The notes below the pieces were generated by a model, which had not been told where the DNA came from, searched no databases, and saw only the letters and a list, made by a program, of their open reading frames with translations. From contig CAVPLM010000003.1 in NCBI GenBank assembly GCA_963706025.1, positions 1-64,000 of the forward strand: a stretch of 64,000 bases of DNA, in the 5' to 3' direction. The DNA is from an uncultured Actinomycetes bacterium (GTDB taxonomy: Bacteria > Actinomycetota > Thermoleophilia > RBG-16-64-13). Shown here piece by piece: positions 49,769-63,496 of the stretch. Position 1 is the first letter of the stretch. The number at the start of each line of letters is the position of its first letter. The position numbers and the translations under genes were made by a program.

Positions 49769-52238
49769 CTACCTTCCAGCCGCGTCGAGCGATTTGAGCA
49801 ACTGGCCCGTGCGGCCCGCGACCACACCGAGTCCCGTGTTGTTCAGATGCACTCGGTCGGGGCTGAAGAACCTCGGATCGAGTTCGCAACCCTGCAGCCC
49901 TATGAATCGGTCGGCGCCCACATCGACGATCGCGTCGGCGAACCCAGGCCATGTTGCCCGTATCAGTCTGTTGAGCGTCTGCCGGTCGGCTTCGAGATTC
50001 GGAGGATAGACTCCGTCTGATCGAGGGAGCGTGGTCAGCACCACCACCGTGTATCCGGCCGCTCTTCGCCCCAAACAGTATTCCCTCAGCCGCGAATAGA
50101 CCGTCCCTGGGGTGTGGGCCCAGTGCCGCATGTCGTTGGTCCCGCCCCACACGACGACCACGTTCTGCCCCAGATCGGACCGGTATAGCGGATCCACTTT
50201 GGATGGAGCGTTGGCGAGCATGTCCTGTAGCCTCTGCCCCCCGATGCCGAGATTCACCCACTTCACGCCGGGACGGAACCTGCGCATCAACTGACTGGGG
50301 TAGGGATCCGTGGCGGTGGAGCCCGCGGTCAGCGAATCCCCGTCGAAGACGATGTTGCCGATGGGTTCGATGGTCGGTACGTGCGGCACGGCCCCGCTGC
50401 TCGAGCCGCCCGCGGCTCCCGAGGGGCCGGTCGGGAAATCCGAATCGTAGAGGGGACCGCGAACACGTAGCAAGTTGGCCAGTAGCTGGGCTATCTCGCC
50501 ACGGGTCGCCGGCGCCAGGAGATCCCAGCCCGATAGGTCGATTCCGTCGAGGAGGCCATTGTATTCGGCCGTATGCGCGTTGGCTCCATGATCGGGATCG
50601 GAGAACCCGCTCGTTCCACCGGTCCAGTCGGCTGGGGGTGAGGCGAGAGCCCAGGGGAGATAGACTCCGGCGGCGCGGACCACCAGAGTGACGGCCTGCG
50701 CCCGGCTGATCGAGGCCCAAGGCCGGAACAACCCCTCGCGATAGCCCTGGACGAGCCCGTAGTGATACGCAGCCGACACGTACTCCCGAGGATAGAGAGG
50801 AGATACGTCCTGTCCCAGATCGAGGAATGGAGCCGGCAGTATTCCCGGGTAGACCGGCATGCCCAGTGTCCCATCCAACATTTTGGCCATCTGTGCCCGC
50901 CGGACCGGCTCACCCGGGCGGAAGGTGCCATCGGCGAACCCGCCGATGATCTGCTTCGTCCACAGACAGGCAACTGCTTCATAGTAGAGGTCGCCGCGCT
51001 CAAGGTCGGAGAACGGTGACCGGGTGGGGAAAGAGGCGTTCCAGCCGAAAGACGAGGCAAGCAGGGCCAGCTCCGGCCCGGCCCTGCCGCCCATATCGAC
51101 GACCCGAAAGATATCGCTTCGCCCCCCGCCCATCGGCACCAATTCGACATAGGGCACGTCCCCGCCATCCCCTCCGTAACACCAGCGATAATCGAAAGCC
51201 TCGTTGTTGGTCACGTCCAGAAGGTCCTCGATCGCACGGTCCGTCATTTTCACGAGGTGGACCGCGTCGCCACTCCCGTCCACCCTGGCTAGGAGGAAGC
51301 CTTGGCCGCCCGGCCCAGCTTGAGGCGCCCAGCCGTTCGGTATGGACACCTGGGATTCCCTGCCCGTATCGAGGGCGTAGACGTAGAAGCCTCGATTGGC
51401 GGGAAAGGACTCGGCATTCCTGTCGAATGCGATAGACAGACCGGTCACCGAGCTGAATACTCACCTCGGAGCCGGAGGCCGTTTCGGAGCCGGAGGCCGT
51501 TTCGGAGCCGGACCCGACCTCAGGGCTGTAGATCGGCTCAGAGCCGGCCGACGCGTTGAACTCGCTCGCGACCCAGCATCCGTTGCCGGCCCCTTTGATG
51601 GACAAGACCGGCTCACCCGCGGCGTCGACGACGTTGAGCGAGGCCGCGCCACTTCCCCGCGTTTCATAGAGAACGTAGCGCCCGTCGGGGGATACGGCCG
51701 GCGACGACGCGTCCTCGATCCTCCACGCGACCCGCTCCTCGCCCGCGCCTGCAGGTGGTCCGTCAAAGACCACCGTTGTGCGCTGGTCGCCGTCCACCAG
51801 CTCCCGCTCTTCCCACGCCAAGGCGCCACCATCGAGAGACCACGCCGGATGACCAAGGGCCTTGCCTTGGGCGGGCACGACCATCGCGACGCCCACTGAC
51901 TCCTCGTAGCGCCAGATGTCGCCGAGGTGGACGAAGTACAGGACGCGGGCCGGCGCGCCGCTGCCGGCCCGCGCCTGGGCGGCACCGGGCGCGTCTTCGG
52001 CGGCCGCGGGGGTGGCAGAAACCGCCCACAGGCCGGCCAGTACAAGCAGGAAGACCAGGAGCCGAAGCAGCGCCCAGCGTGCAGAGCATGGGCGCCCATT
52101 CGTTTCCGTGGACGACCCACGCAGGCGGCCCCGCCCTCGGGTCCTGCGCCGCTCCCGCGAGCTTGCACGGCTGCACGTGCCCCCGTCACGCGTGCTGCGC
52201 CGCTCCCGCGCCTCGGCGATCGACCCGACCACCTTCAT
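49769..52238 (-). CDS. secreted TolB-like / SLH / SGNH-hydrolase multidomain protein; frameshift near 51450, start uncertain
   Basis: Signal peptide ending AAA-E, PAWSLDG and PAVSPDG blades, three SLH motifs (GFADGTFRP..RAQ), SGNH blocks GDSLT, GTND and DRVH. Confidence 0.8.
51466..51512. repeat. 18-bp tandem repeat, about 2.6 copies (encodes SGSETA)
   Basis: TCGGAGCCGGAGGCCGTT repeated. Confidence 0.8.
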
Positions 52239-52352
52239 GCTTCTTCCAGCTTCCTCAAAGATCCACGCCCCCACGCGCCCGTCGTATCGCTACTTGTCCC
52301 TGGCCGACGATATCGTATGATGGCGAAAAAGACCGAGAGGTTTCAGGTGAAC

Positions 52353-53036
52353 ATGGCAAAAGGAACAGGGGCGACAGCGAAGGAGTCCGGAGCCGCTCAC
52401 GCCCGAGAGATCATCGCCCGCTTGAGAGAAGAGTATCCCGACGCCGGTATCGTGCTCGATTACGGCAGTGATTGGGAGTTGCTCGTGGCCGTCATCCTCT
52501 CCGCCCAGTGCACGGACAAGATGGTCAATCAGGTCACAGCCAAGCTCTTTCAGAAGTACCGCACCATCGAGGACTACGCCTCCGCCGAACCGGCTGAATT
52601 CGAGATCGACATCCGGCCCACGGGCTTCTTCCGCAACAAGACGAAGCACATCATCGCCGCGGCGCAGAAGGTCCTGAGCGACTTCCAGGGAGAGGTACCC
52701 GCCAGCATGGCCGAACTCCTGACTCTGCCGGGGGTCGCGCGAAAGACCGCCAACATCGTGCTGGGCAACGCCCACCCGGACGCCTATTCCACTGATCCCG
52801 ACGCGGGCATCGCCGTGGACACGCACGTGAACCGACTCAGCCAGAGGCTCGGCCTGGCGACATCTTCCGACTCCGACAAGATCGAGAGGGAGTTGATGGT
52901 TATCGTCCCCCGAGCCGATTGGTTCCGGCTGACCTACCTGCTGATCGAGCACGGTCGCGCCGTCTGTATGGCCAAGCGCCCCCGCTGCGGGGAGTGCCTG
53001 CTGCAGGACATCTGCCTTTCGGCGTTCAAGGTCTGA
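52353..53036 (+). CDS. nth: endonuclease III
   Basis: [23 protein letters not shown] and C-x6-C-x2-C-x5-C. Confidence 0.96.
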
Positions 53037-53048
53037 CCCGCCGGGCGG

Positions 53049-53077
53049 TTGACGCTTCCGGTCCTCGCCTATACCAT
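53049..53077 (+). promoter_or_regulatory. sigma-70 promoter upstream of paaK
   Basis: TTGACG-N17-TACCAT. Confidence 0.7.
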
Positions 53078-53161
53078 CGCACAGTCGATCTACGGCCCTA
53101 CGTACCGGCCCCAGGGTCGGACGGGGGACAGGTGAGCCGCGCTACGCAAGGGGAACAACGC

Positions 53162-54520
53162 ATGATCAGAGACCGGAAGCACGAGTGCATGAGCCGCAAG
53201 GAGCTCGGGCAGCTGCAGGGAGAGCGCCTGGGCGCCCAGGTCAGACGGGTCTACGAGCGGGTCCCCTTCTACAAGAACCTGTTCGACCGTGAGGAGATCG
53301 TCCCCGAACGCATCCACGGTCTCGACGACCTCCCCCGTCTCCCGTTCACCACGAAGCACGGCCTACGCGACAACTACCCCTTCGGTCTTCTGGCGGTACC
53401 GCCCAAGGAGGTGGTCCGTATCCATGCGTCGTCGGGCACCACCGGGAAGCCGACCACCTGTGGCTACACCCGTGGCGACATCGACATGTGGGCTGAAGTC
53501 ATGGCCCGCTCCCTTGTAGGCGCGAGCACCACCGACGAAGACGTGGTCCAGGTCGCCTACGGCTACGGTCTTTTCACCGGAGGACTGGGGGCTCACTACG
53601 GGGCGGAGTTGATCGGCGCCTCCGTCATCCCCATATCGGGCAGCAACACGCAACGCCAGCTCATGCTCATGCAGGACTACGGCTCCACGGTGATCTGCTG
53701 CACCCCCAGCTTCGTCCTGTATCTCTGGGACGTGGCCCAGCAGCTCGGGCTGGACGTCACCAGTTTCCCGCTCCGGGTGGGAGTGCTCGGAGCCGAACCC
53801 TGGTCGGAAGCCATGCGGCGCGATATCGAGCAGAAATGGAACATCAAGGCCTGCGACATCTACGGGCTCTCCGAGATCATCGGTCCCGGCGTGTCGTGTG
53901 AGTGCATCGAGGCCCAGTCGGGTCTCCACATCAACGACGATCACTTCTTGCCCGAGATCATCGATCCCGAGACCGGGGAGGTCCTACCCGAAGGAGAGTT
54001 GGGCGAACTGGTCTTCACCACTCTGACCAAGGAGGCCATGCCGCTCATCCGCTACCGCACCGGCGATATCACCCGGCTGGATTCCGAACCCTGCATCTGT
54101 GGGCGAACCAGCACGCGCATGCACCGTGTATCGGGGCGCTCGGACGACATGCTGATCATTCGAGGGGTCAACGTCTTTCCCAGCCAGGTGGAATCGGTGC
54201 TGCTGATGTCACCTCAGGTGGAGCCGCACTACCAGTTGGTGGTGAACCGCAAGGGCGCCATGGACACCATGGACGTGCTGGTGGAGATCTCCCCGGCCCT
54301 TTACAGGGAAGTCTCCGAAGCCATCCTCTCGTTGGACGACGTCACGATGTTCACCGAGCACGACGCTCTCCTCGATCTTAAGCAGCAGATCCAGAAGAAC
54401 GTTAAGGACATCATCGGCATCAGCGTGAATGTGGCTTTCAAGGAGCCGGGATCTATCGAGCGCAGTGAGGGCAAGGCTCAGCGGGTGCTCGACCTACGCA
54501 AGGACCAGGGCGACAAGTAG
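53162..54520 (+). CDS. paaK: phenylacetate--CoA ligase family protein
   Basis: [33 protein letters not shown] and [16 protein letters not shown]. Confidence 0.93.
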
Positions 54521-54721: not shown

Positions 54722-56047
54722 ATGAGCACGACCGCCATCGAGATAATCGGCGTCGTCCTTCTGGTGGTCGTCAACGCGTTCTTCGTGATATCCGAGTTCG
54801 CCATCGTCAAGGTGCGCGACACGAGGGTGGCCGAGTTGGCCGCCATGGGCAGCCGGCGGGCGCGGGTGGCCGATCACATCGTCAATCACCTCGACGCCTA
54901 CCTGTCGGCGACTCAGCTGGGAGTCACCGTCGCCAGCCTGGGGCTGGGTTGGCTGGGCGCATCGGCTTTCACAGATATCTTCGACGTGGCCTTGAGTCGT
55001 ACAGCCGCGGCGATCCTCGCCTTCGTCTTTGTGACCTTCGTCACCATCATCTTCGGCGAGTTGGTCCCCAAGTCACTGGCCATACGCAAGGCCGAGCGCT
55101 CCACACTCATCGTCGCCTTGCCCCTACGCTGGTTCTACCTCATCACCCGCCCTTTGACCTGGCTCATGTATATCTCCGCGGCCGGCATCCTCAGAGTCTT
55201 CCGCATCCAGCCCGCGTCGGAACGCGATCTGGCCCATTCCGAGGAAGAGCTACGGATGATCATCGAGGCCAGTCAGGAAGGGGGCCACATCGACGAGGTG
55301 GAGCAGACCCTCATGCGCCGCGCCCTCACTTTCGGTGACCGCGCGGTGGGCGACATCATGGTGCCTCGCACCGAGATGGCCGCCCTACCCACCTCGACCC
55401 TCGTCAGTCAGGCTATCGAGGAGATCGCGGAGACGAATCACACAAGGTACCCGGTCTATGAGGAGGACGTCGACAACATCGTGGGCTACGTCCACGTCAA
55501 GGACCTCTACCGGATGCCGCTCGACGCCACCTTGCGGCGCCTTCTGCGCCCCATCGGCTTCATCGCCGAGACATCGAACATAGAGCTTGCTCTGCAGCGC
55601 TTTCAGAGCACGCGCACGCCGCTCACCATCGTGGTCGACGAGCACGGCGGCACGGCGGGCATCGTCACCATCCAGGACGTGGTGGAGGAGCTGATCGGCG
55701 AGGTTCAGGACGAGTTCGACCTGGAGGCGCCGGAAGTCGAGGACCGCGGGGACGGCAGCTACTCCATCGACGGTGGGGCCCGGATCGACTATCTGGAGAG
55801 CCTTCTGGGACTGGACGTGCCCGAAGAGGGCTTTCCCACCTTGGGTGGCCGGGTCTTCGAGCAGCTGCAGCGACGCCCCCAGGTGGACGACGAGGCTCAG
55901 ATAGGCGAATTCCATGCCCAGGTCCTCGAGGTGGACGGGATGCGCATCTCCCGGGTGCTCCTCAGCCGGCGCGCTGCGGAGGAAGAGGAAGGCGAACTTG
56001 AAGACGCGGAGGGCGCCGAGCCCGGCGGCGAATACTCTGACGACTGA
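54722..56047 (+). CDS. hemolysin/CNNM family protein (DUF21-CBS-CorC)
   Basis: NAFFV.SEFA, QLGVT, GELVPK, MVPR, TRYPV and VDEHGG. Confidence 0.93.
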   Translation: MSTTAIEIIGVVLLVVVNAFFVISEFAIVKVRDTRVAELAAMGSRRARVADHIVNHLDAYLSATQLGVTVASLGLGWLGASAFTDIFDVALSRTAAAILAFVFVTFVTIIFGELVPKSLAIRKAERSTLIVALPLRWFYLITRPLTWLMYISAAGILRVFRIQPASERDLAHSEEELRMIIEASQEGGHIDEVEQTLMRRALTFGDRAVGDIMVPRTEMAALPTSTLVSQAIEEIAETNHTRYPVYEEDVDNIVGYVHVKDLYRMPLDATLRRLLRPIGFIAETSNIELALQRFQSTRTPLTIVVDEHGGTAGIVTIQDVVEELIGEVQDEFDLEAPEVEDRGDGSYSIDGGARIDYLESLLGLDVPEEGFPTLGGRVFEQLQRRPQVDDEAQIGEFHAQVLEVDGMRISRVLLSRRAAEEEEGELEDAEGAEPGGEYSDD

Positions 56048-56152
56048 CCCGTGACCGGCTCGCACCCTGAGTCCGTCGAGATGCCTACCTGATTTCGAGC
56101 CCGAGCTGCTGTTGTGCGCCCCCGATCGCCGCAGCAGGGTATCATTCGCCGC

Positions 56153-59100
56153 ATGAGACCGATCGAGGTACCGTTCGATTCTGACGCCCTTCGGGCGAAC
56201 CTTGCAGGCACCACTCAAGAGGTGGTCATTCCCGACCGCTATCTGCCACTGGTCCAGGCCGTCGACGGCTTGTACGGTGTACGCACGCCCCTGACCGAGA
56301 CCCTGGCCGAGTATTTCCACGCCTTTCGCAACGTCGACCTGCTCATCGACGGCTTTCAGACCATCCTTCTGCGCAATTGGACCTACTTCGAGCGTTCAGA
56401 AGACCGCGCTCGGTGCTTCGGGCTGCTCTCCGAACTGGTGCTCGACCTTCTCGATACCCCACTTACCGAGGGGCAGACGTCGTTGTTGCTGCGCCAGTTG
56501 CTCTCTTGGTGCACCACGGCTCTGCGCGGACCCTTCTCCGACGCTTACGACGACAGCCTGCAGGCCGTAGCCGAATGCCTCTCCCGATCGCTTTCCCGGC
56601 AACCGCTTGCTTTCTTGGAGCGGGACGCCCTGGTGCGTGGTGTTGTCGAGCGAGCCGCGAAACGGCCTGCCGTCGAACTGGTGTTCTCCGAGCTCTACCG
56701 GGACCTCCTGCTTCTGGGGTACCGGAGGCTGAGCGAGCGACTGCCCATACCCCAATGGGCCACTTCGACCGAGGCAGAGCTCGCCGACGCCGAAGCCGTC
56801 GCCGCCAACTTCTCGCTGTTGGCCCCAGAGCGGATCGCCGGACTCATGGCACGAGCGGAGAGTGCGTCGCTCCCCGACCTGCTGTCCCCTGAACTTCCGG
56901 TCTTCTCCGCCATCCTCGACCAGGCCATCGACCAGGTCTTCCGGATCGATGACCTCGAGGATCGCTTCGCAGTCTGCCTCTATTTCCTTAAAGACGACAC
57001 CCTGGGCTACCGTCAAAACGAGGTGATGGTCGACCTGCTGGGAGTGATCAGACAGCTCATGAAGCCCGAGCGGCACATGGACGTCGATCGTATCCTAAGC
57101 CGCCTCACCCGCTTCTTCCGGGCGCGCGACAACCAGTTCCTTCTCATGCGCTTCCAGTGCTACGAAGCCATCGGAGTGGCTATCGGCGAGGCAGGCAACG
57201 TGGCGGCGGCCGACCACGTCATCGAGGACGTGCTCTCCTGGCGGTTCCAGTACCCCGACATAAGGGGCGCCACGGACGACTGGGAGACGATGGTCAACCC
57301 GTTCCACCTGCCCAAGATCCGCTGCTGGATGCACATCGTCGAGTCCAATCCCTCCCTCTACGAACGATTGGCCGCCGCCCTCAACGTGCAGCTGCGCCTG
57401 GGCGGCGTATACATCGCCGACACCGACCTCTTCCAGCGTGATGTCACCCTCTTCCTGAACGCCGATATCCGGCCCATATACTTCGTGGCCAAGCAGTTGC
57501 TCCGAGCGTTCCCCGTGTACTTCAACGACGTGGGCGCCGAAGGCGAGTTGCGGTCCGTGTCTACCGAGATAGACGAGATCTGTGGGCGTCGGGACACGCT
57601 CATGCATTTCATCCGCAAGCAATCCCACGCTGAGTCGTCCAACCGCTTGGTGGCTTTCAGCAGGGCGGTGCTCTCCTATTGGATGACTCTGGACCCCTCC
57701 GGTCTGGAGCCCTACATTTCGGCCAATACCATGGCCGCCGTGCACCGGGAATCGGAATGGGCCGAGGAGCCCCACGCTGTTCTTCTCGGACTTTGGGCGG
57801 CTCTCGAGGATGGGAGACGCCCAGACGGGAACGCGGGGCCGAACCTGGAGTCGTTCCTCGATCGGTTGGTCAGTCTCCCGCCGTCCGCGCTGGAGGAACT
57901 GGTCGGCGGGCTGCCCGGGCCGGAAGACAGCGGCTCGACGGGCCCCCGCCGGGTCCTTCTCATGGTCCGCACCTATCAGCTACTCGCCCAGAAGTACTCG
58001 CTGTCGGCCGACAATATAGGTCCGGCCGTCGCTCACCATCTGCAACTCGACGCAAAGATTCGGCTCAAATTCGCGAGGGCCTTGCGCGCCTGGCAGGCCG
58101 AGCCCAAAGCCTCGGCCCGCGACCATCTGCTCGACGTGGCTCTGACCGTGCTCGAACAGTTGAAAGACATCATCTTGAATCCCTCGCCATCAGTGGCGGT
58201 GGAGAACATCTACCAGAAGCGGCATATCGCCGCCGGCATCCCCTCCATGTACGGCAACTACAGCGAGCCGAAGTTCGATGCTCTGGGCCTTTCCTTCCGG
58301 GTGGAGAACCTGGTGGCCCGCTTGCTTGAGGACCTGGTTACCGAGGGCACCGACGCGTATGTGACCCGCGACTCCCTGCGGCGAATGGCCGTCGCCATAA
58401 GACGGTTCGAACGCGCCTTGGCGGCGGGTGGCGTTGATTCCCGCAACCTGGCCGCCAACCTGCGCCTGCTCGAGTCCAGTTTCAGCAGCCACAATTTCAC
58501 CTTCCATCAGTATCGCAACGTGTTCCAGTTCATCGTCGGCTCGGTCACCGAGTTGTCGCGCACCTCGATACTCAGCCACGACCAAGTGCTGCGCGCGGTA
58601 CTCGAACACGACCCCCGGCAGTGCGAAGCCCGCTGCCTCTCGCTCGACGCGACGGCCGAGGTGGTCCTGCGGGAAGTGCTGGTCACAGCTCTGGGCATGC
58701 AGACCCTGGACCGCTACGTCTCCGCTGCTCTACACCAGATCTCCACCCTTGCCGGGCGCCTTAGCAATCAGGCCTTGACCCGGATGATGAACTACGACCC
58801 CGAACGCCTGGTCTCCCCAATACACGAGGCCAAGCCCAGCACGGACGACCAGATGACCCTGGGCTTCAAGGGACTGGGGCTCAAGCAGATGGCTTCGTAC
58901 AAGCATCGAGTCCCCGAGGGCTTCATCCTCAGCACCGAGCTGTTCGGCGCCTGGCCTGCCATGTCTCACCGGCCCCTTTACGACGACACTCTCGAGCGTA
59001 TCCGCAAAGCGCTGGGCCGTCTGGAGAGAGAGACGGGGCTCCGTCTGGGCGACCCCGCCCGCCTGCTCACGCTCTCGATCCGATCCGGCGCGGCCATTTC

Positions 59101-60340
59101 CCTGCCAGGGCTCATGACCACCTTCGTCGACGTTGGCCTGAACGACAGATTGGCGGAGGCTCTCTCGCGCCGGCCTGGATTCGATTGGGCAGCCTGGGAT
59201 TCGTACCGGCGGTTCCTTCAGTCGTGGGCCATGGCGTCGGGCGTCGACCGGGACTTCTTCGACGGGATCATGAACGAGTTCAAGCTGCGCTACGGCATCG
59301 AACGCAAGCTCGACTTTCTCCCCGAGCACATGCGCGAACTGGCCTTCACGTACAAGGCCCGCGGCCGGGAGCTGGGGGTCAAGTACACCGACGATCCTTT
59401 CCGCCAGGTCGTCGGCTGTATGCGGAAGGTCCTGGCATCCTGGGATTCGCCCGAGGCCAAGCTCTACCGCCGTTACCTCGGGGTGGCCGAGGAGTGGGGC
59501 ACCGCCGTTGTGGTGCAGAGAATGGTCTTCGGGAATCTCAGCCGCGAATCGGGTTCTGGTGTCACGTTCACGCGCAACCCCTTGGAGCCGTATAGCAGCC
59601 AGGTTCGGCTTTTTGGCGACTTCACCGCCCGGAGCCAAGGCGAGGACCTAGTGGCCGGCCTTGTGTTCCCCCTGCCCATCTCCGAAGCGCAGCGCCTCGG
59701 CAGCCCCACCTACCGGGGCATAGAGCATTCTCTGGAGCGGGATTACCCGGAGGTCTACCTGGCACTGCTCGCAATCGCCCGGGACCTGGTGAACACGCGG
59801 GAGTTCGACCCCCAAGAGATCGAGTTCACCTTCGAGTCCGCGTCCGGACAGGATCTTTACGTCCTTCAGAAACGGGCGATGGTGCAACAACAGACGACGG
59901 AGATGCCCTATTTCGACACTTCCTCGCCGCACTTCGGCCCGCCCGCCGCCGTAGGCATGGGGGTGGCCGGTGGCGCCTACTCAGGAAGAGCGGCGATCAA
60001 CGCCCGGCAGATCTCCCGCCTCCTCGCCCACGCCCCTGACGACAACATCCTGCTGCTCAGGCCCGACACCGTGCCCGAGGACATCGCCATGATCGCCCAG
60101 GTCTCCGGCCTGCTCACCGCCAGGGGCGGAGCCACGTCACATGCGGCCGTCACCGCCAAGCGTCTGGGGAAGGTCGCCGTGGTCGATTGCCGAGAGTTGG
60201 ATGTGGTCGAGCACCGAGGGGTCGCGTACCTCGCCGGAACGAAGATCAAGGCCGGCGATTGGCTCTCCATAGACGGCCGTACCGGCAATATCTTCTGGGG
60301 ACGCATCCCTACTCTGGCGCGACCCATCATCTCCCTCTAG
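56153..60340 (+). CDS. PPDK-derived dikinase-like protein: unassigned N-terminal domain, nucleotide-binding domain and phospho-His domain, no pyruvate-binding domain
   Basis: LGFKG, SIRSGA, VQRMVFGN, SGSGVTFTRNP, QGEDLVAG, EIEFT, GGATSHAA. The protein ends 65 residues after the His. Confidence 0.85.
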   Translation: MRPIEVPFDSDALRANLAGTTQEVVIPDRYLPLVQAVDGLYGVRTPLTETLAEYFHAFRNVDLLIDGFQTILLRNWTYFERSEDRARCFGLLSELVLDLLDTPLTEGQTSLLLRQLLSWCTTALRGPFSDAYDDSLQAVAECLSRSLSRQPLAFLERDALVRGVVERAAKRPAVELVFSELYRDLLLLGYRRLSERLPIPQWATSTEAELADAEAVAANFSLLAPERIAGLMARAESASLPDLLSPELPVFSAILDQAIDQVFRIDDLEDRFAVCLYFLKDDTLGYRQNEVMVDLLGVIRQLMKPERHMDVDRILSRLTRFFRARDNQFLLMRFQCYEAIGVAIGEAGNVAAADHVIEDVLSWRFQYPDIRGATDDWETMVNPFHLPKIRCWMHIVESNPSLYERLAAALNVQLRLGGVYIADTDLFQRDVTLFLNADIRPIYFVAKQLLRAFPVYFNDVGAEGELRSVSTEIDEICGRRDTLMHFIRKQSHAESSNRLVAFSRAVLSYWMTLDPSGLEPYISANTMAAVHRESEWAEEPHAVLLGLWAALEDGRRPDGNAGPNLESFLDRLVSLPPSALEELVGGLPGPEDSGSTGPRRVLLMVRTYQLLAQKYSLSADNIGPAVAHHLQLDAKIRLKFARALRAWQAEPKASARDHLLDVALTVLEQLKDIILNPSPSVAVENIYQKRHIAAGIPSMYGNYSEPKFDALGLSFRVENLVARLLEDLVTEGTDAYVTRDSLRRMAVAIRRFERALAAGGVDSRNLAANLRLLESSFSSHNFTFHQYRNVFQFIVGSVTELSRTSILSHDQVLRAVLEHDPRQCEARCLSLDATAEVVLREVLVTALGMQTLDRYVSAALHQISTLAGRLSNQALTRMMNYDPERLVSPIHEAKPSTDDQMTLGFKGLGLKQMASYKHRVPEGFILSTELFGAWPAMSHRPLYDDTLERIRKALGRLERETGLRLGDPARLLTLSIRSGAAISLPGLMTTFVDVGLNDRLAEALSRRPGFDWAAWDSYRRFLQSWAMASGVDRDFFDGIMNEFKLRYGIERKLDFLPEHMRELAFTYKARGRELGVKYTDDPFRQVVGCMRKVLASWDSPEAKLYRRYLGVAEEWGTAVVVQRMVFGNLSRESGSGVTFTRNPLEPYSSQVRLFGDFTARSQGEDLVAGLVFPLPISEAQRLGSPTYRGIEHSLERDYPEVYLALLAIARDLVNTREFDPQEIEFTFESASGQDLYVLQKRAMVQQQTTEMPYFDTSSPHFGPPAAVGMGVAGGAYSGRAAINARQISRLLAHAPDDNILLLRPDTVPEDIAMIAQVSGLLTARGGATSHAAVTAKRLGKVAVVDCRELDVVEHRGVAYLAGTKIKAGDWLSIDGRTGNIFWGRIPTLARPIISL

Positions 60341-60527
60341 AGCCGCCCGCCTGGGCCGGCCATGAGGTCACCTAACGACGCGACCGTACTCCGATGTCCC
60401 TGCGCGCGCTGGAATCCGGGCGCTTCTGGAAGTACCCTGGAAAGAAGAGACACGCGTCCGCCGCCGAACCGCAACGGCACCGGCGCTCGGACGGTAATCG
60501 GAATCTAGGAGATGGGAGGCCTGGCCA

Positions 60528-61763
60528 ATGAGCGCGCCGCGCAAGCTGGGGATCAACGGGCTGGGACGGATCGGGAAGCTAACCCTGTGGTACCACCTGG
60601 GTCACGATGACTTCGACTGCTTCGTGATCAACGTGGGCCGCCAGGTGGGGACTTCGCTTCAGTCCGTCGTCGAGTACGTCAGCAAGGACAGCACTTACGG
60701 GCCGCTGCACCGTTATCTGTACGGTCATCAGGGCAAGAGGGACATCGAGGTGGTCGATGAGGCGGCAGGACTTGTCAGGGCGCACGGCAAGGAGATCATC
60801 CTCCTGCGAGAAGCCCGCAATCCCAAAGATATCCCCTGGCGTGACCACGGAGTGAGCCTGGTGGTGGAATGCACCGGCACATTCCGGGATCCCCACGCCG
60901 ACGCCGAGGACCCGAAAGGGGCGCTCCGGGGCCATCTGGCCGCCGGAGCGCGAACGGTCGTGCAGAGCTCCCCGTTCAAGAGCAAGACCAAGGGAGTGCC
61001 GCTGCCTGAAGACACCGCCATCCTGATCAACGGCATCAACCACTCCGAGTATGATCCGGGCAAGCACAAGATCGTCTCAGCCGCCTCCTGCACCACCACG
61101 GCTCTTGCTCACATGATGCGGCCTCTGCTGGCCCGGGACCTCACCCGGCATATGATCACCGCGGGGATGAGCACCGTCCACGCGGTCACCAACAGCCAGC
61201 CGGTGCTCGACGCGGTCCCGGGTTCGGGCGCTACCGACCTCCGCAAGACCCGCGCCGCCATGAACAACATCGTTCTGACGTCCACCAACGCCGCAAAGGC
61301 GCTCGAGCAGGTCATGCCCGAGGTAGCCCGCATCGGCTTCATGGCCGATTCGGTGCGCATCCCTACTGCCAGCGTGAGCCTGATCATCCTGAATGTCACC
61401 TTCCAGAGCGAGAGCCTGCCCGACGGGACGGTGACGGTGGACCGCGAAGCCATCAACGCCATCTACCGGGAAGCTTCCGAAGGCGAGGCCCGAGGTCTAC
61501 TCAAGTACAGCGAGGAGCAGAACGTCTCCGCGGACATGTTGGGTGAAGACGCGGCAGTGGTGATCGAAGCGGTGGAGACCCACACCCGCACCGGTTTCGT
61601 CGATCTAAGGATACCGGACTGCCAACCCGGGGGTGAGACCGCCTATCGCGATCACCGCATGCCGCTCACTCACGTGAAGGTCTTCGGCTGGTACGACAAC
61701 GAGATGGGCAGCTACACATATCGGCTGGGCGAGCTCACCAGCCACGTCGCGGGGAGTATGTAA
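60528..61763 (+). CDS. divergent glyceraldehyde-3-phosphate dehydrogenase family protein
   Basis: GINGLGRIG, VVECTG, SAASCTT, TVHA and WYDNE; 411 aa. Confidence 0.9.
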   Translation: MSAPRKLGINGLGRIGKLTLWYHLGHDDFDCFVINVGRQVGTSLQSVVEYVSKDSTYGPLHRYLYGHQGKRDIEVVDEAAGLVRAHGKEIILLREARNPKDIPWRDHGVSLVVECTGTFRDPHADAEDPKGALRGHLAAGARTVVQSSPFKSKTKGVPLPEDTAILINGINHSEYDPGKHKIVSAASCTTTALAHMMRPLLARDLTRHMITAGMSTVHAVTNSQPVLDAVPGSGATDLRKTRAAMNNIVLTSTNAAKALEQVMPEVARIGFMADSVRIPTASVSLIILNVTFQSESLPDGTVTVDREAINAIYREASEGEARGLLKYSEEQNVSADMLGEDAAVVIEAVETHTRTGFVDLRIPDCQPGGETAYRDHRMPLTHVKVFGWYDNEMGSYTYRLGELTSHVAGSM

Positions 61764-61792
61764 GGCAGTTCCCTCACGGTTATCCTTCGCGA

Positions 61793-62336
61793 CTACTCCC
61801 CCACGGTCAGGATCGTGGCTTCGATCCGGGGCCGGGCCCGCGGCCCGGCCCCGGACTCAGATCCCTGTGTTCGAAAGATCTCGAGCCGAGCCATGGTCCG
61901 GGGGCGGCCGAACCGCCGTGGCCCGGCCGAGCCGGGGTTGAGATACAGCACGTGGTCACGCTCCTCGACCGAGGCCAGATGGCTGTGTCCGAATATGACC
62001 GCCGCGAGGTCTCCGCCGGCCTTTGGCCCGCCTCCGCCTGGTTCGGTCCGCAGCCCCCGCGCAATGTGGCCGACCAGGATACGCGCACCCCCTATGGTCA
62101 CCTCGGCCCGCGCAGGGAGGCTTCCGGCCCAGGCAGAGCAGATCGCAGTTACCCCTCACCGCCGTGACCGGAGCCATCGCCTGCAGAGCAGCCAGCACCT
62201 GGGGAGAGCCCACATCACCCGCGTGGATGATATGGTCGACTCCCTGGAGCAGCTTTAGGACCTGGGGATACAGCTGCCCATGGGTGTCGGAAAGGACGCC
62301 CACCACGATCGAGCCCCTTGCCGTTGAATGGTCCAA
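61793..62336 (-). CDS. YfcE-like metallophosphoesterase; frameshift near 62130
   Basis: SDTH, HAGD and RGNCD in one frame; GHSH and NPGS in the next. Confidence 0.88.
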
Positions 62337-62389
62337 GCCTTGATTCCCCTCTGCGGTCGTTGGCGCGCAGGCTTTCAAAGGTCATCCTT

Positions 62390-63496
62390 CTAGAGGAGAT
62401 CCACGTACAGGTCCTCGGCCAGATCGTTCCCCGGTGGGAGGTGGCCCTGTTCGTGAGCATATCGGGCGAGCAACTCGCTCTCGCGCTGCGTGTAGAGGGG
62501 GTCGAGTTCCACTTTGAAGAAGGCGACCGTGACGCAGGCCGGCTCCGCTAACGCCTCAGCCAGACCCTGCCGCAGGTTCGCTACTCCTCCGATGCGGAGG
62601 ATCTGTCCTTCCGGGTCCATGAGTTGGAAGACGCCGGCCTCGCAGGGGACCGCCGTCATTATCGCAAGATCGACCGCCTGCCAAGCCTCGGGAGGTAGTA
62701 CGGGCGTACAAAGACCGCTCTTCGCGCGGCGATCGGCCAGCCAGCGCGCCCCGTCTTCCCCAGGCGCGGTGAGCGCACCCGCGGGGCAGACCATGACGCA
62801 GTGCCCGCAGAACGTGCAGCCCGAAACGCGCAGGGTGTCCCGCTTCGGACGCGCCACGAAGCCTGGCGGGGGATCCACCGACCGGGCGACCATCTCCAGC
62901 GCCCGACCGGCCTGCGGTGAAGTGTCGCACACCATCACGCACCGGCCGCAGCCGATGCACAATCCCGGTTCGCGCCGGATGCGCCCTTCCCGAACTGCAT
63001 CGCGCGGCACGGTAACCGAACCCCGAGCCAGGCTTCCTTCCGAGTCGAGATGGGCTACCATCTTGCCCAGTTCGCAGCGACCGAACTGGTCGCAACACCG
63101 TGCGTCCGCAGGATGGCCGTACGTGCACTGGTCCCGAGTGCAGCCGTCGCGGTCAGGGCAGGCAAGGCAGACGTGCGGATGCCGGGCCAGGATGCGCGCC
63201 AACCGCTCCAGCCGCGCCGCGGCCAGCCCCGGGTCTTGGGTGGTCACCTCCAGATCGGCGGCAGCCCTCGTGACGCAGGCGAGGGCCACGGACCCATCCT
63301 GAAGCCGCACAACACACAGCCCGCACTCGACTCCGCCCACCCCCGCCCGCGCGCAGCAAGCCAGGCCAGGATAGAAGCAGAGACGAGGAACATAGCGCCC
63401 GGCCGCGTCACAGGCTTCGAGGAGGGTCGTCCCGTCCGCGACGGTGACGGCCGCCCCGTCGACGCGCATCTGCATCTCTACGCTCGAGGCGTTCAC
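62390..63496 (-). CDS. BzdV-like iron-sulfur protein lacking the flavin/NADPH domain
   Basis: 2Fe-2S (PRLC..CGLC..AC), His/Cys cluster HPHVCLACP, CIGCGRC and CTFCGHC..CP, and a C-terminal GVFQL..YTQRESELL..PPGN domain. Confidence 0.75.
   Translation of the reverse strand: MNASSVEMQMRVDGAAVTVADGTTLLEACDAAGRYVPRLCFYPGLACCARAGVGGVECGLCVVRLQDGSVALACVTRAAADLEVTTQDPGLAAARLERLARILARHPHVCLACPDRDGCTRDQCTYGHPADARCCDQFGRCELGKMVAHLDSEGSLARGSVTVPRDAVREGRIRREPGLCIGCGRCVMVCDTSPQAGRALEMVARSVDPPPGFVARPKRDTLRVSGCTFCGHCVMVCPAGALTAPGEDGARWLADRRAKSGLCTPVLPPEAWQAVDLAIMTAVPCEAGVFQLMDPEGQILRIGGVANLRQGLAEALAEPACVTVAFFKVELDPLYTQRESELLARYAHEQGHLPPGNDLAEDLYVDLL

Follow-up and report, generated by a model that had tools for sequence, protein, structure and literature searches.

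Pyruvate, phosphate dikinase (PPDK; EC 2.7.9.1), described by solved structures (1kbl, 1dik, 5jvn) and a curated protein model (TIGR01828), combines an ATP-grasp nucleotide-binding domain, a swivelling phospho-histidine domain and a TIM barrel for phosphoenolpyruvate (PEP) and pyruvate. The same ATP-grasp and swivel-histidine module is joined to another acceptor part in rifampin phosphotransferase (RPH), glucan-water dikinase (GWD), PEP synthase (PEPS) and the two-part aryl dikinases (phenylphosphate synthase and HpeI, 9goj); GWD and phenylphosphate synthase act as dikinases by reusing this module. Here we analyse a stretch of 64,000 nucleotides (hereafter the window; GCA_963706025.1, contig CAVPLM010000003.1, positions 1 to 64,000) from an uncultured actinobacterium of the class Thermoleophilia, in which a giant PPDK-derived protein of 1,395 residues is encoded next to a divergent, long paralogue of glyceraldehyde-3-phosphate dehydrogenase (GAPDH). 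Across three different gene orders and deep divergence, the two genes have evidently remained partners. We propose, at a probability of roughly 40%, that the giant protein is a 3-phosphoglycerate/1,3-bisphosphoglycerate dikinase (ATP + orthophosphate (Pi) to AMP + pyrophosphate (PPi)) coupled to its own GAPDH and working beside phosphoglycerate kinase (PGK).

Two further described enzymes bear on this proposal. PGK would share the pair 3-phosphoglycerate (3-PG) and 1,3-bisphosphoglycerate (1,3-BPG) with the dikinase, and its gene often lies in the same operon. It is nevertheless unrelated in sequence and fold and uses ATP/ADP directly without a phospho-enzyme, whereas the reaction proposed here would produce AMP and PPi through a phosphorylated histidine. 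The long GAPDH resembles the type I phosphorylating GAPDH in having both domains, the catalytic Cys and His and the residues of the phosphate site, but it forms a separate clade and differs in several features given below.

The PPDK-derived half and the absent barrel

The C-terminal third of the giant protein is close to PPDK. At ∼30% identity the two share the ATP-grasp and swivel domains with all their motifs, and residues 910–1405 (P0001 numbering) align with chain residues 17–518 of the solved PPDKs. The motifs LGFKG, SIRSGA, LPGLMTT, WGTAVVVQRMVFGN, QGEDLVAG, QEIEFTFE, LYVLQKR and GGATSHAAV align with those of the Clostridium symbiosum and plant enzymes, where the counterparts are LGGKG (its Lys is kept), SVRSGA, the MPGMMDT loop, WGTAVxVQxMVFGN, SGTGVxFTRNP, QGEDVVAG, the Mg/ATP motif DMEFT...LQTR and GGMTSHAAV. 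The protein length, the onset of PPDK motifs near residue 900, the T-S-H motif (residues 1328–1330, with His1330 as the phospho-histidine) and the end of the protein only 65 residues further on are all as stated in the original prediction, which had been made from the sequence alone.

An AlphaFold2 (AF2) model of residues 196–1395, built on an 80-sequence alignment (mean predicted local distance difference test (pLDDT) 89.6; predicted template modelling score (pTM) 0.79), was placed by Foldseek on 1kbl with a root-mean-square deviation of 2.7 Å over 545 columns; PEPS (2ols), RPH (5hv1–5hv6, 5fbs) and HpeI (9goj) were weaker structural matches. At the sequence level, similarity to RPH (NCBIfam, 30 bits) and PEPS (46–53 bits) is far below that to PPDK, and the acceptor domains of RPH, GWD, PEPS and the aryl dikinases are unrelated to the N-terminal region of the giant protein. 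HpeI of Rhodococcus rhodochrous, released in 2025, adds another split enzyme to the dikinase superfamily. The second-best NCBIfam match (255 bits, cut-off 456) is the short actinobacterial 'PPDK' of the PRK05878 type (NF004531, a 534-residue model), which likewise lacks most of the barrel but has no 900-residue N-terminal domain. Judged from its conserved motifs, the PPDK-derived half looks catalytically whole.

What follows the swivel domain in PPDK is missing here. The giant protein stops at the equivalent of PPDK residue ∼518, without the TIM barrel, and carries a helical N-terminal domain of 900 residues (N-domain) instead. Pfam recognized PPDK_N (958–1186) and PEP-utilizers (1312–1391; both in P0001 numbering) and nothing else, with no match to PEP-utilizers_C (PF02896, the PEP/pyruvate TIM barrel) anywhere in the protein. 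TIGR01828 matched over model positions 12–336 of 865 and scored 320.5 bits, against a curated cut-off of 843.45. Of the features that mark PPDK, the ATP-grasp motifs and the G-G-x-T-S-H swivel domain are both present; with neither the barrel nor the curated score, the protein falls outside PPDK and fits the wider kind of His-swivel dikinases, with a new third domain.

Databases nonetheless label these proteins 'pyruvate, orthophosphate dikinase' or 'PEP/pyruvate-binding domain-containing protein', and in NCBIfam the ATP-grasp domain is nearest to that of PPDK. A true PPDK whose PEP/pyruvate site lies on another protein or is concealed within the N-domain is even so very improbable. The genome itself (30 contigs, 92% complete) encodes an ordinary PPDK in a 935-residue frame besides the giant protein, and PF02896 was matched only once in it, within that PPDK, which leaves no separate barrel to act in trans, and this possibility was rejected for the genome; a full PPDK is likewise present in 21 of 21 relatives searched. 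A barrel hidden or circularly permuted in the N-domain was also rejected, as hhalign against the PPDK barrel gave a probability of 0.04% and the confident AF2 model of residues 1–900 (pLDDT 88.3, pTM 0.82) consists of ∼45 helices and a single β-hairpin. The earlier statement that this is not a pyruvate dikinase is thus supported.

Coupling of the dikinase to a long GAPDH

In the window the GAPDH homologue lies 187 nucleotides downstream on the same strand, as first noticed. We examined this arrangement in 76 genome loci, 75 of them titled Actinomycetota, Thermoleophilia, Gaiellales or similar actinobacterial metagenome-assembled genomes (MAGs) and one merely 'bacterium', and in 74 metagenome loci whose N-domains are 25–36% identical to that of the window. 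The long GAPDH is found within 1 kb of the dikinase in 65 of the 76 Actinomycetota loci: in 32 it follows the dikinase on the same strand, the arrangement of the window, and in 33 it is upstream and divergent. It lies further off in two (3.0 and 6.8 kb), is missing in three with both flanks of at least 1.5 kb, and the flanks of six are too short for a call. Among the metagenome loci it is within 1 kb in 48, downstream on the same strand in 39 and downstream but convergent in 9, with two more at 1.2–1.4 kb, 10 without it despite adequate flanks and 14 with flanks too short for a call. Spacers between the pair are usually 70–160 nucleotides long.

The pair also keeps company with the canonical genes of the same pathway step. 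Of the 33 divergent loci, 30 have a canonical gap gene directly after the dikinase, and in 28 of these pgk comes next. Two loci (L028 and L069) have the order uvrC, CofD-family gene, whiA, [long GAPDH, opposite strand][dikinase]-gap-pgk; L069 also has iPGM beyond this block. Two metagenome loci (L108 and L148) read gap-dikinase-long GAPDH-pgk. Even among the 10 well-flanked metagenome loci without the long GAPDH, seven have a canonical-type gap directly upstream of the dikinase. When the 712 neighbouring open reading frames (ORFs) of the 74 metagenome loci were clustered, GAPDH was the sole family recurring across lineages (57 of 74 loci). It was followed by a sigma-54 activator (10), CODH/ACS genes (5–9), triosephosphate isomerase (TIM; 5), PGK (4–5), RapZ (5) and glycogen synthase (4); SecG was also among the nearby genes, together with TIM, PGK and glycogen synthase. 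In one metagenome lineage (for example L086, L094, L099 and L104) the pair adjoins Wood–Ljungdahl genes, these being CdhD (9 loci), a pterin-binding protein (7), ACS beta (6), DUF3786 (6) and prismane/CODH (5).

Co-occurrence was scored in a class sample of 301 genomes, with the long GAPDH called at E≤1e-80. The dikinase was present in 110 and the long GAPDH in 109; 108 had both, two the dikinase alone, one the long GAPDH alone and 190 neither, so that 108 of the 111 carriers of either gene have both. The exceptions are G016, with a 57%-identical long GAPDH and no dikinase match, and G022 and G203, with a dikinase and no long GAPDH at that threshold (completeness 98, 96 and 90%, respectively). 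The tie between dikinase homologues and this GAPDH clade, which the original prediction had named as a test, holds strongly in the neighbourhoods, in the co-occurrence counts and in the tree of the clade.

The long GAPDH is no ordinary family member. The window protein scored 305.5 bits against TIGR01534, under the 367.2-bit cut-off, and in a quick tree the long and canonical GAPDHs fell on opposite sides of one branch (55 versus 23 sequences; SH-aLRT 100). It is ∼80 residues longer owing to six conserved insertions (63–74, 120–127, 156–162, 232–235, 297–304 and 357–381). We compared 92 long with 39 canonical GAPDHs at the positions of the Bacillus stearothermophilus enzyme, where we take Cys149 and His176 to be catalytic and Thr179 and Arg231 to form the C3-phosphate site. 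The catalytic Cys, His176, Thr179, Arg231, Ser148, Thr150 and Thr208 are kept in 92 of 92 long GAPDHs, and phosphorylated-triose and acyl-phosphate chemistry therefore remain likely; judged by these residues, the long GAPDH most likely remains a dehydrogenase that forms a thioester and takes a 3-phospho-triose as its substrate.

The cofactor loop has changed. The N-D motif of all 39 canonical GAPDHs is replaced by N-x-G-R in all 92 long ones, within a loop V-V-N-x-G-R-x-V-G in which N35, G37, R38 and G41 are invariant; the column of the canonical Asp holds no Asp and has V (71), A (10), I (7) and S (4) as its four commonest residues. In Rossmann folds, losing this Asp while having an Arg nearby typically marks NADP(H) binding, and NADP-using gluconeogenic type I GAPDHs such as GapB exist. 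By analogy, this suggests that the long GAPDH uses NADP(H) and hence may run in the reductive, gluconeogenic or anabolic direction. A further change concerns the Pi site, where the Arg of type I enzymes is Lys in 90 of the 92.

This Lys and the altered loop, which make the long GAPDH no plain copy of its canonical relative, leave room for a dikinase that feeds or drains the GAPDH step through some other small acceptor: glyceraldehyde to glyceraldehyde-3-phosphate, glycerate to phosphoglycerate, dihydroxyacetone to dihydroxyacetone phosphate, or an acid reduced by a substrate-shifted GAPDH. The genomic coupling would be explained equally, and GWD and RPH demonstrate that the dikinase module can phosphorylate hydroxyl groups. 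We nevertheless find such an acceptor unlikely, because Thr179 and Arg231 are invariant, so that the substrate is probably still a 3-phospho-triose, and because a shared labile 1,3-BPG accounts better for the constant companionship of a dedicated GAPDH; nor did genes for glycerol, dihydroxyacetone or glycerate recur among the clustered neighbours.

The N-domain and the proposed reaction

Residues 1–900 matched nothing in Pfam or NCBIfam, six N-domains gave chance-level matches only in Pfam at E≤10, an N-domain profile returned 0 matches among all PDB sequences at E≤10, and the best ESM Atlas match (0.75, to a 256-residue cluster without a name) was below lead level; the lack of a recognizable family, remarked on at the outset, is thereby borne out. 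Foldseek against PDB returned only long α-solenoids (Kap121p, FANCI, CTR9; TM 0.10–0.17). VIA-align against 48,161 representative chains matched HEAT/TOG-like repeats at residues 25–417 and helix bundles at 738–870, the best reaching Z 11.3 across 116 residues; values under ∼13 are common among unrelated helical repeats. On the predicted model, then, the N-domain fold would have no real solved relative among the structures searched, in searches that barely probe the conserved core at 418–737.

Conservation points to that core. In sequences only 22–29% identical, H385, D423, R467, D474, R488, K489, H492, K614, Y615, K689, R690, H691, S698, G701, R840 and D853 are invariant, and the hairpin at 683–704 bears the best-conserved motif of the family, ENIYxKRHIAxGIPSMYGxYxExKF. 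Such a set of Arg, Lys, His and Asp residues suits a polyanionic substrate. In the superfamily layout, the two shared domains (ATP-grasp and phospho-histidine carrier) are accompanied by a third, which here is present and conserved, and we infer that the N-domain is the acceptor-binding part. A complex prediction for the N-core (residues 330–900) with the long GAPDH, run with alignments, scored 0.00, a value that by the rule of the tool weighs neither way on binding.

An all-helical, solenoid-like domain whose structural look-alikes are solely protein-binding repeat proteins, albeit at weak scores, might instead belong to a regulator or scaffold. The N-domain would then be a binding platform for the long GAPDH or some other protein, and flux through the GAPDH step would be controlled by the phospho-histidine module, which would either phosphorylate the bound protein or sense energy charge (ATP/AMP/PPi). 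A hemerythrin sensor is fused to the distant members P0187 and P0211, PAS/sigma-54 activators are close by in 10 of the 74 metagenome loci, and the clade-specific conserved insertions of the GAPDH could be docking surfaces. Still, the N-core holds its enzyme-like invariant residues at very low identity, and the long GAPDH, with every catalytic residue in place, is an enzyme and not a mere target. PPDK, PEPS, GWD, RPH and phenylphosphate synthase act on small molecules or glucans, enzyme I of the phosphotransferase system being the exception in the superfamily, and this habit counts against a regulatory role, which we hold to be possible but doubtful.

For a 3-PG dikinase, the steps could run as follows. 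The ATP-grasp domain would use ATP, with Pi in the manner of PPDK, to phosphorylate His1330, with AMP and PPi set free, and the swivel domain would ferry the phosphoryl group to an acceptor site in the N-core formed by the Arg/Lys/His/Asp cluster and the β-hairpin. As acceptor, the 3-PG carboxylate is the likeliest; its phosphorylation would give 1,3-BPG, which the dedicated long GAPDH would reduce to glyceraldehyde-3-phosphate, probably with NADPH. The reverse is also possible, with ATP made from AMP and PPi and paid for by 1,3-BPG. The choice of 3-PG fits the context, as the pair lies within gap-pgk operons and the phosphate sites of the GAPDH are kept; the retention of a private GAPDH would make sense if the two enzymes shared a labile intermediate. 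Succinyl-CoA synthetase provides a precedent for transfer from phospho-histidine to a carboxylate. The acceptor, AMP/PPi formation, direction, cofactor and any physical complex are all deduced from these comparisons.

The pair would thus constitute a PPi-linked route parallel to PGK and canonical GAPDH. The same genome encodes a canonical 331-residue GAPDH gene adjoining a 396-residue PGK gene, and with both enzymes present in the genome and in the operons the dikinase route is not needed for closing a gap. Of the earlier suggestion of a 'PGK alternative', a parallel route is accordingly retained and a replacement of PGK is not. PPi would probably not be wasted, since a membrane H+-PPase and PPDK are present and a family-I soluble PPase was not found in this 92% complete genome. 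A second PGK locus (G000:C3:562425-563601) reads in two frames and the H+-PPase (G000:C11:24983-26973) in three; these breaks are frameshifts or assembly errors, and the giant gene is by contrast intact.

Several observations besides the presence of PGK and canonical GAPDH weigh against a 3-PG dikinase. The Lys at the Pi site means that the chemistry of the GAPDH may differ from the textbook reaction. The N-domain is a 900-residue helical and partly solenoid-like body, a shape commoner in protein-binding scaffolds than in small-molecule sites, and in the AF2 model the swivel domain is docked on the ATP-grasp domain, as in 1kbl, and not on the N-domain. The long GAPDH is not nearby in 3 of 76 and 10 of 74 loci despite adequate flanks, and the co-occurrence counts overstate the support because related genomes are not independent. 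Finally, the sigma-54 activators beside the dikinase and the N-terminal hemerythrin in 2 of 14 distant representatives would be equally at home with a sensor or a regulator.

The lower parts of glycolysis and gluconeogenesis count as fully mapped, and this two-gene unit would add to them either a novel reaction or a novel point of control. If the PPi-linked 3-PG route is real, it would be a new enzyme of central metabolism that bypasses the PGK step, comparable to PPDK and PEP synthase versus pyruvate kinase, in a fold without known relative, and the AMP/PPi-linked reaction would show energy-limited microbes tuning the thermodynamics of 3-PG and glyceraldehyde-3-phosphate. It is conceivable, somewhat more tentatively than the reaction itself, that a second, PPi-linked connection between these two metabolites, made of a phospho-histidine dikinase and its own NADP(H)-type GAPDH, exists in many anaerobic and facultative bacteria. 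A systematic mis-annotation as 'pyruvate, phosphate dikinase', which distorts metabolic reconstructions of uncultured anaerobes, would be corrected, and a large domain family absent from Pfam would be given a function. Our search of the literature outside subscription journals found no description of this dikinase family, and the passages of PMC2700814 and PMC8100219 that were consulted make no mention of it.

Family spread, expression and neighbouring genes

The gene is conserved and real rather than a chance ORF, given that 118 intact full-length homologous ORFs were found in the 150 fetched loci. A word-indexed search retrieved 641 relatives. The best 120 of these come from Thermoleophilia or Actinobacteria MAGs, where they are annotated as PPDK or 'PEP/pyruvate-binding domain protein'; all have 1,088–1,478 residues and are at least 68% identical. 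A search profile restricted to the N-domain recovered 541 cluster representatives at a threshold of E≤1e-3 and 247 when this was tightened to E≤1e-30; lengths of 1,335–1,540 residues were frequent among them. Their breadth extends over three families of the class and to Desulfobacterota- and Myxococcota-labelled MAGs, with named members from Desulfobacterium, Deltaproteobacteria/Thermodesulfobacteriota and Myxococcota MAGs. When 14 distant representatives were scanned, 10 had PPDK_N and PEP-utilizers behind the N-domain, the remainder including fragments or unassigned sequences, and no other architecture was seen among the 14. Some members of 1,455–1,540 residues (P0187, P0211) have hemerythrin (PF01814) fused before the N-domain, which may serve O2, iron or NO sensing.

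Within the class sample, carriers are found in the families f1 (48 of 55) and f3 (50 of 55), with 11 of 56 in f2, which has a distant version of both genes, and 0 of 134 in nine others. Heme-copper oxidase was found in 20 of 55 f1, 35 of 55 f3, 55 of 56 f2, 51 of 52 f4, 23 of 23 f5, 26 of 26 f7 and 9 of 24 f6 genomes. A restriction of the dikinase to anaerobes was not upheld by these counts, given the low oxidase frequency in f6, which lacks the dikinase, and the high one in f2; there is a tendency only. Some genomes have two copies of the dikinase–GAPDH locus (L004/L005 in one MAG, G094 on C9 and C12, L046/L066 and L025/L073); the identity values of L004 and L005 are equal, and these may be duplicated contigs instead of true paralogues.

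Table 1. Coordinates of the dikinase–GAPDH pair, its domains and neighbouring genes in the window.
Feature	Position	Strand	Basis and remarks
Giant dikinase gene, 1,395 aa	56153..60340	+	ORF list; alternative GTG start at 56114
N-domain helical repeats, residues 25–330	56225..57142	+	AF2, VIA-align; poorly conserved in the wide family; generic HEAT/TOG-like resemblance only
N-domain conserved core, residues 340–900	57170..58852	+	Conservation across sequences 22–29% identical
Sole N-domain β-hairpin, residues 683–704, VENIYQKRHIAAGIPSMYGNYS	58199..58264	+	AF2 and conservation; tip 691–695 of low model confidence
PPDK-type ATP-grasp nucleotide-binding domain, residues 897–1243	58841..59881	+	Pfam, NCBIfam, PDB alignment, motifs, Foldseek
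Phospho-histidine swivel domain, residues 1299–1378	60047..60286	+	Pfam, motif alignment; T-S-H codons 60134–60142
Spacer, 187 nt	60341..60527	+	GGGAGG Shine–Dalgarno 9 nt ahead of the GAPDH ATG
Long GAPDH paralogue, 411 aa	60528..61763	+	Both GAPDH domains; Cys188, His218, Thr221, Arg277 kept; N35-x-G37-R38 for N-D; K240 for Arg
ORF, 746 aa	47769..50009	+	
Endonuclease III	51927..53036	+	From first start codon
PaaK-like phenylacetate-CoA ligase	52919..54520	+	As listed
Fe-S protein, 449 aa	62390..63739	-	

The alternative GTG start would lengthen the giant protein by 13 residues; the 1,395-residue form is the one used by the database copy P0003 and by homologues. A scan of 55900–62500 found no terminator, in the spacer or elsewhere, and a single promoter-like site, inside the GAPDH gene and at chance level. 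Two sediment metatranscriptome runs contain short contigs near-identical to parts of the gene (56990–57260 with one mismatch, 58430–58605 with none), and one such contig spans the dikinase stop; another, from a run whose RNA origin is a guess, reaches across into the GAPDH start. These contigs are compatible with expression of the dikinase, although DNA carry-over is possible, they cannot prove a single transcript, and the stretches they leave uncovered carry no weight either way.

Downstream of the pair, the window encodes on the opposite strand a 449-residue Fe-S protein with a 2Fe-2S plus 4Fe-4S dicluster and N-terminal modules resembling those of HoxU, NuoG and FeFe-hydrogenase, all under cut-offs; the gene is kept in this position in most loci of the window type, at 43–73% identity. 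Upstream, a 746-residue ORF without Pfam or NCBIfam match is kept a few genes away from the dikinase in ∼12 related loci, at 47–67% identity. Endonuclease III has ∼155 surplus N-terminal residues when read from its first start codon, and the PaaK-like phenylacetate-CoA ligase (590 bits, cut-off 646) has ∼88; the two ORFs overlap as listed, and their true starts therefore probably lie later.

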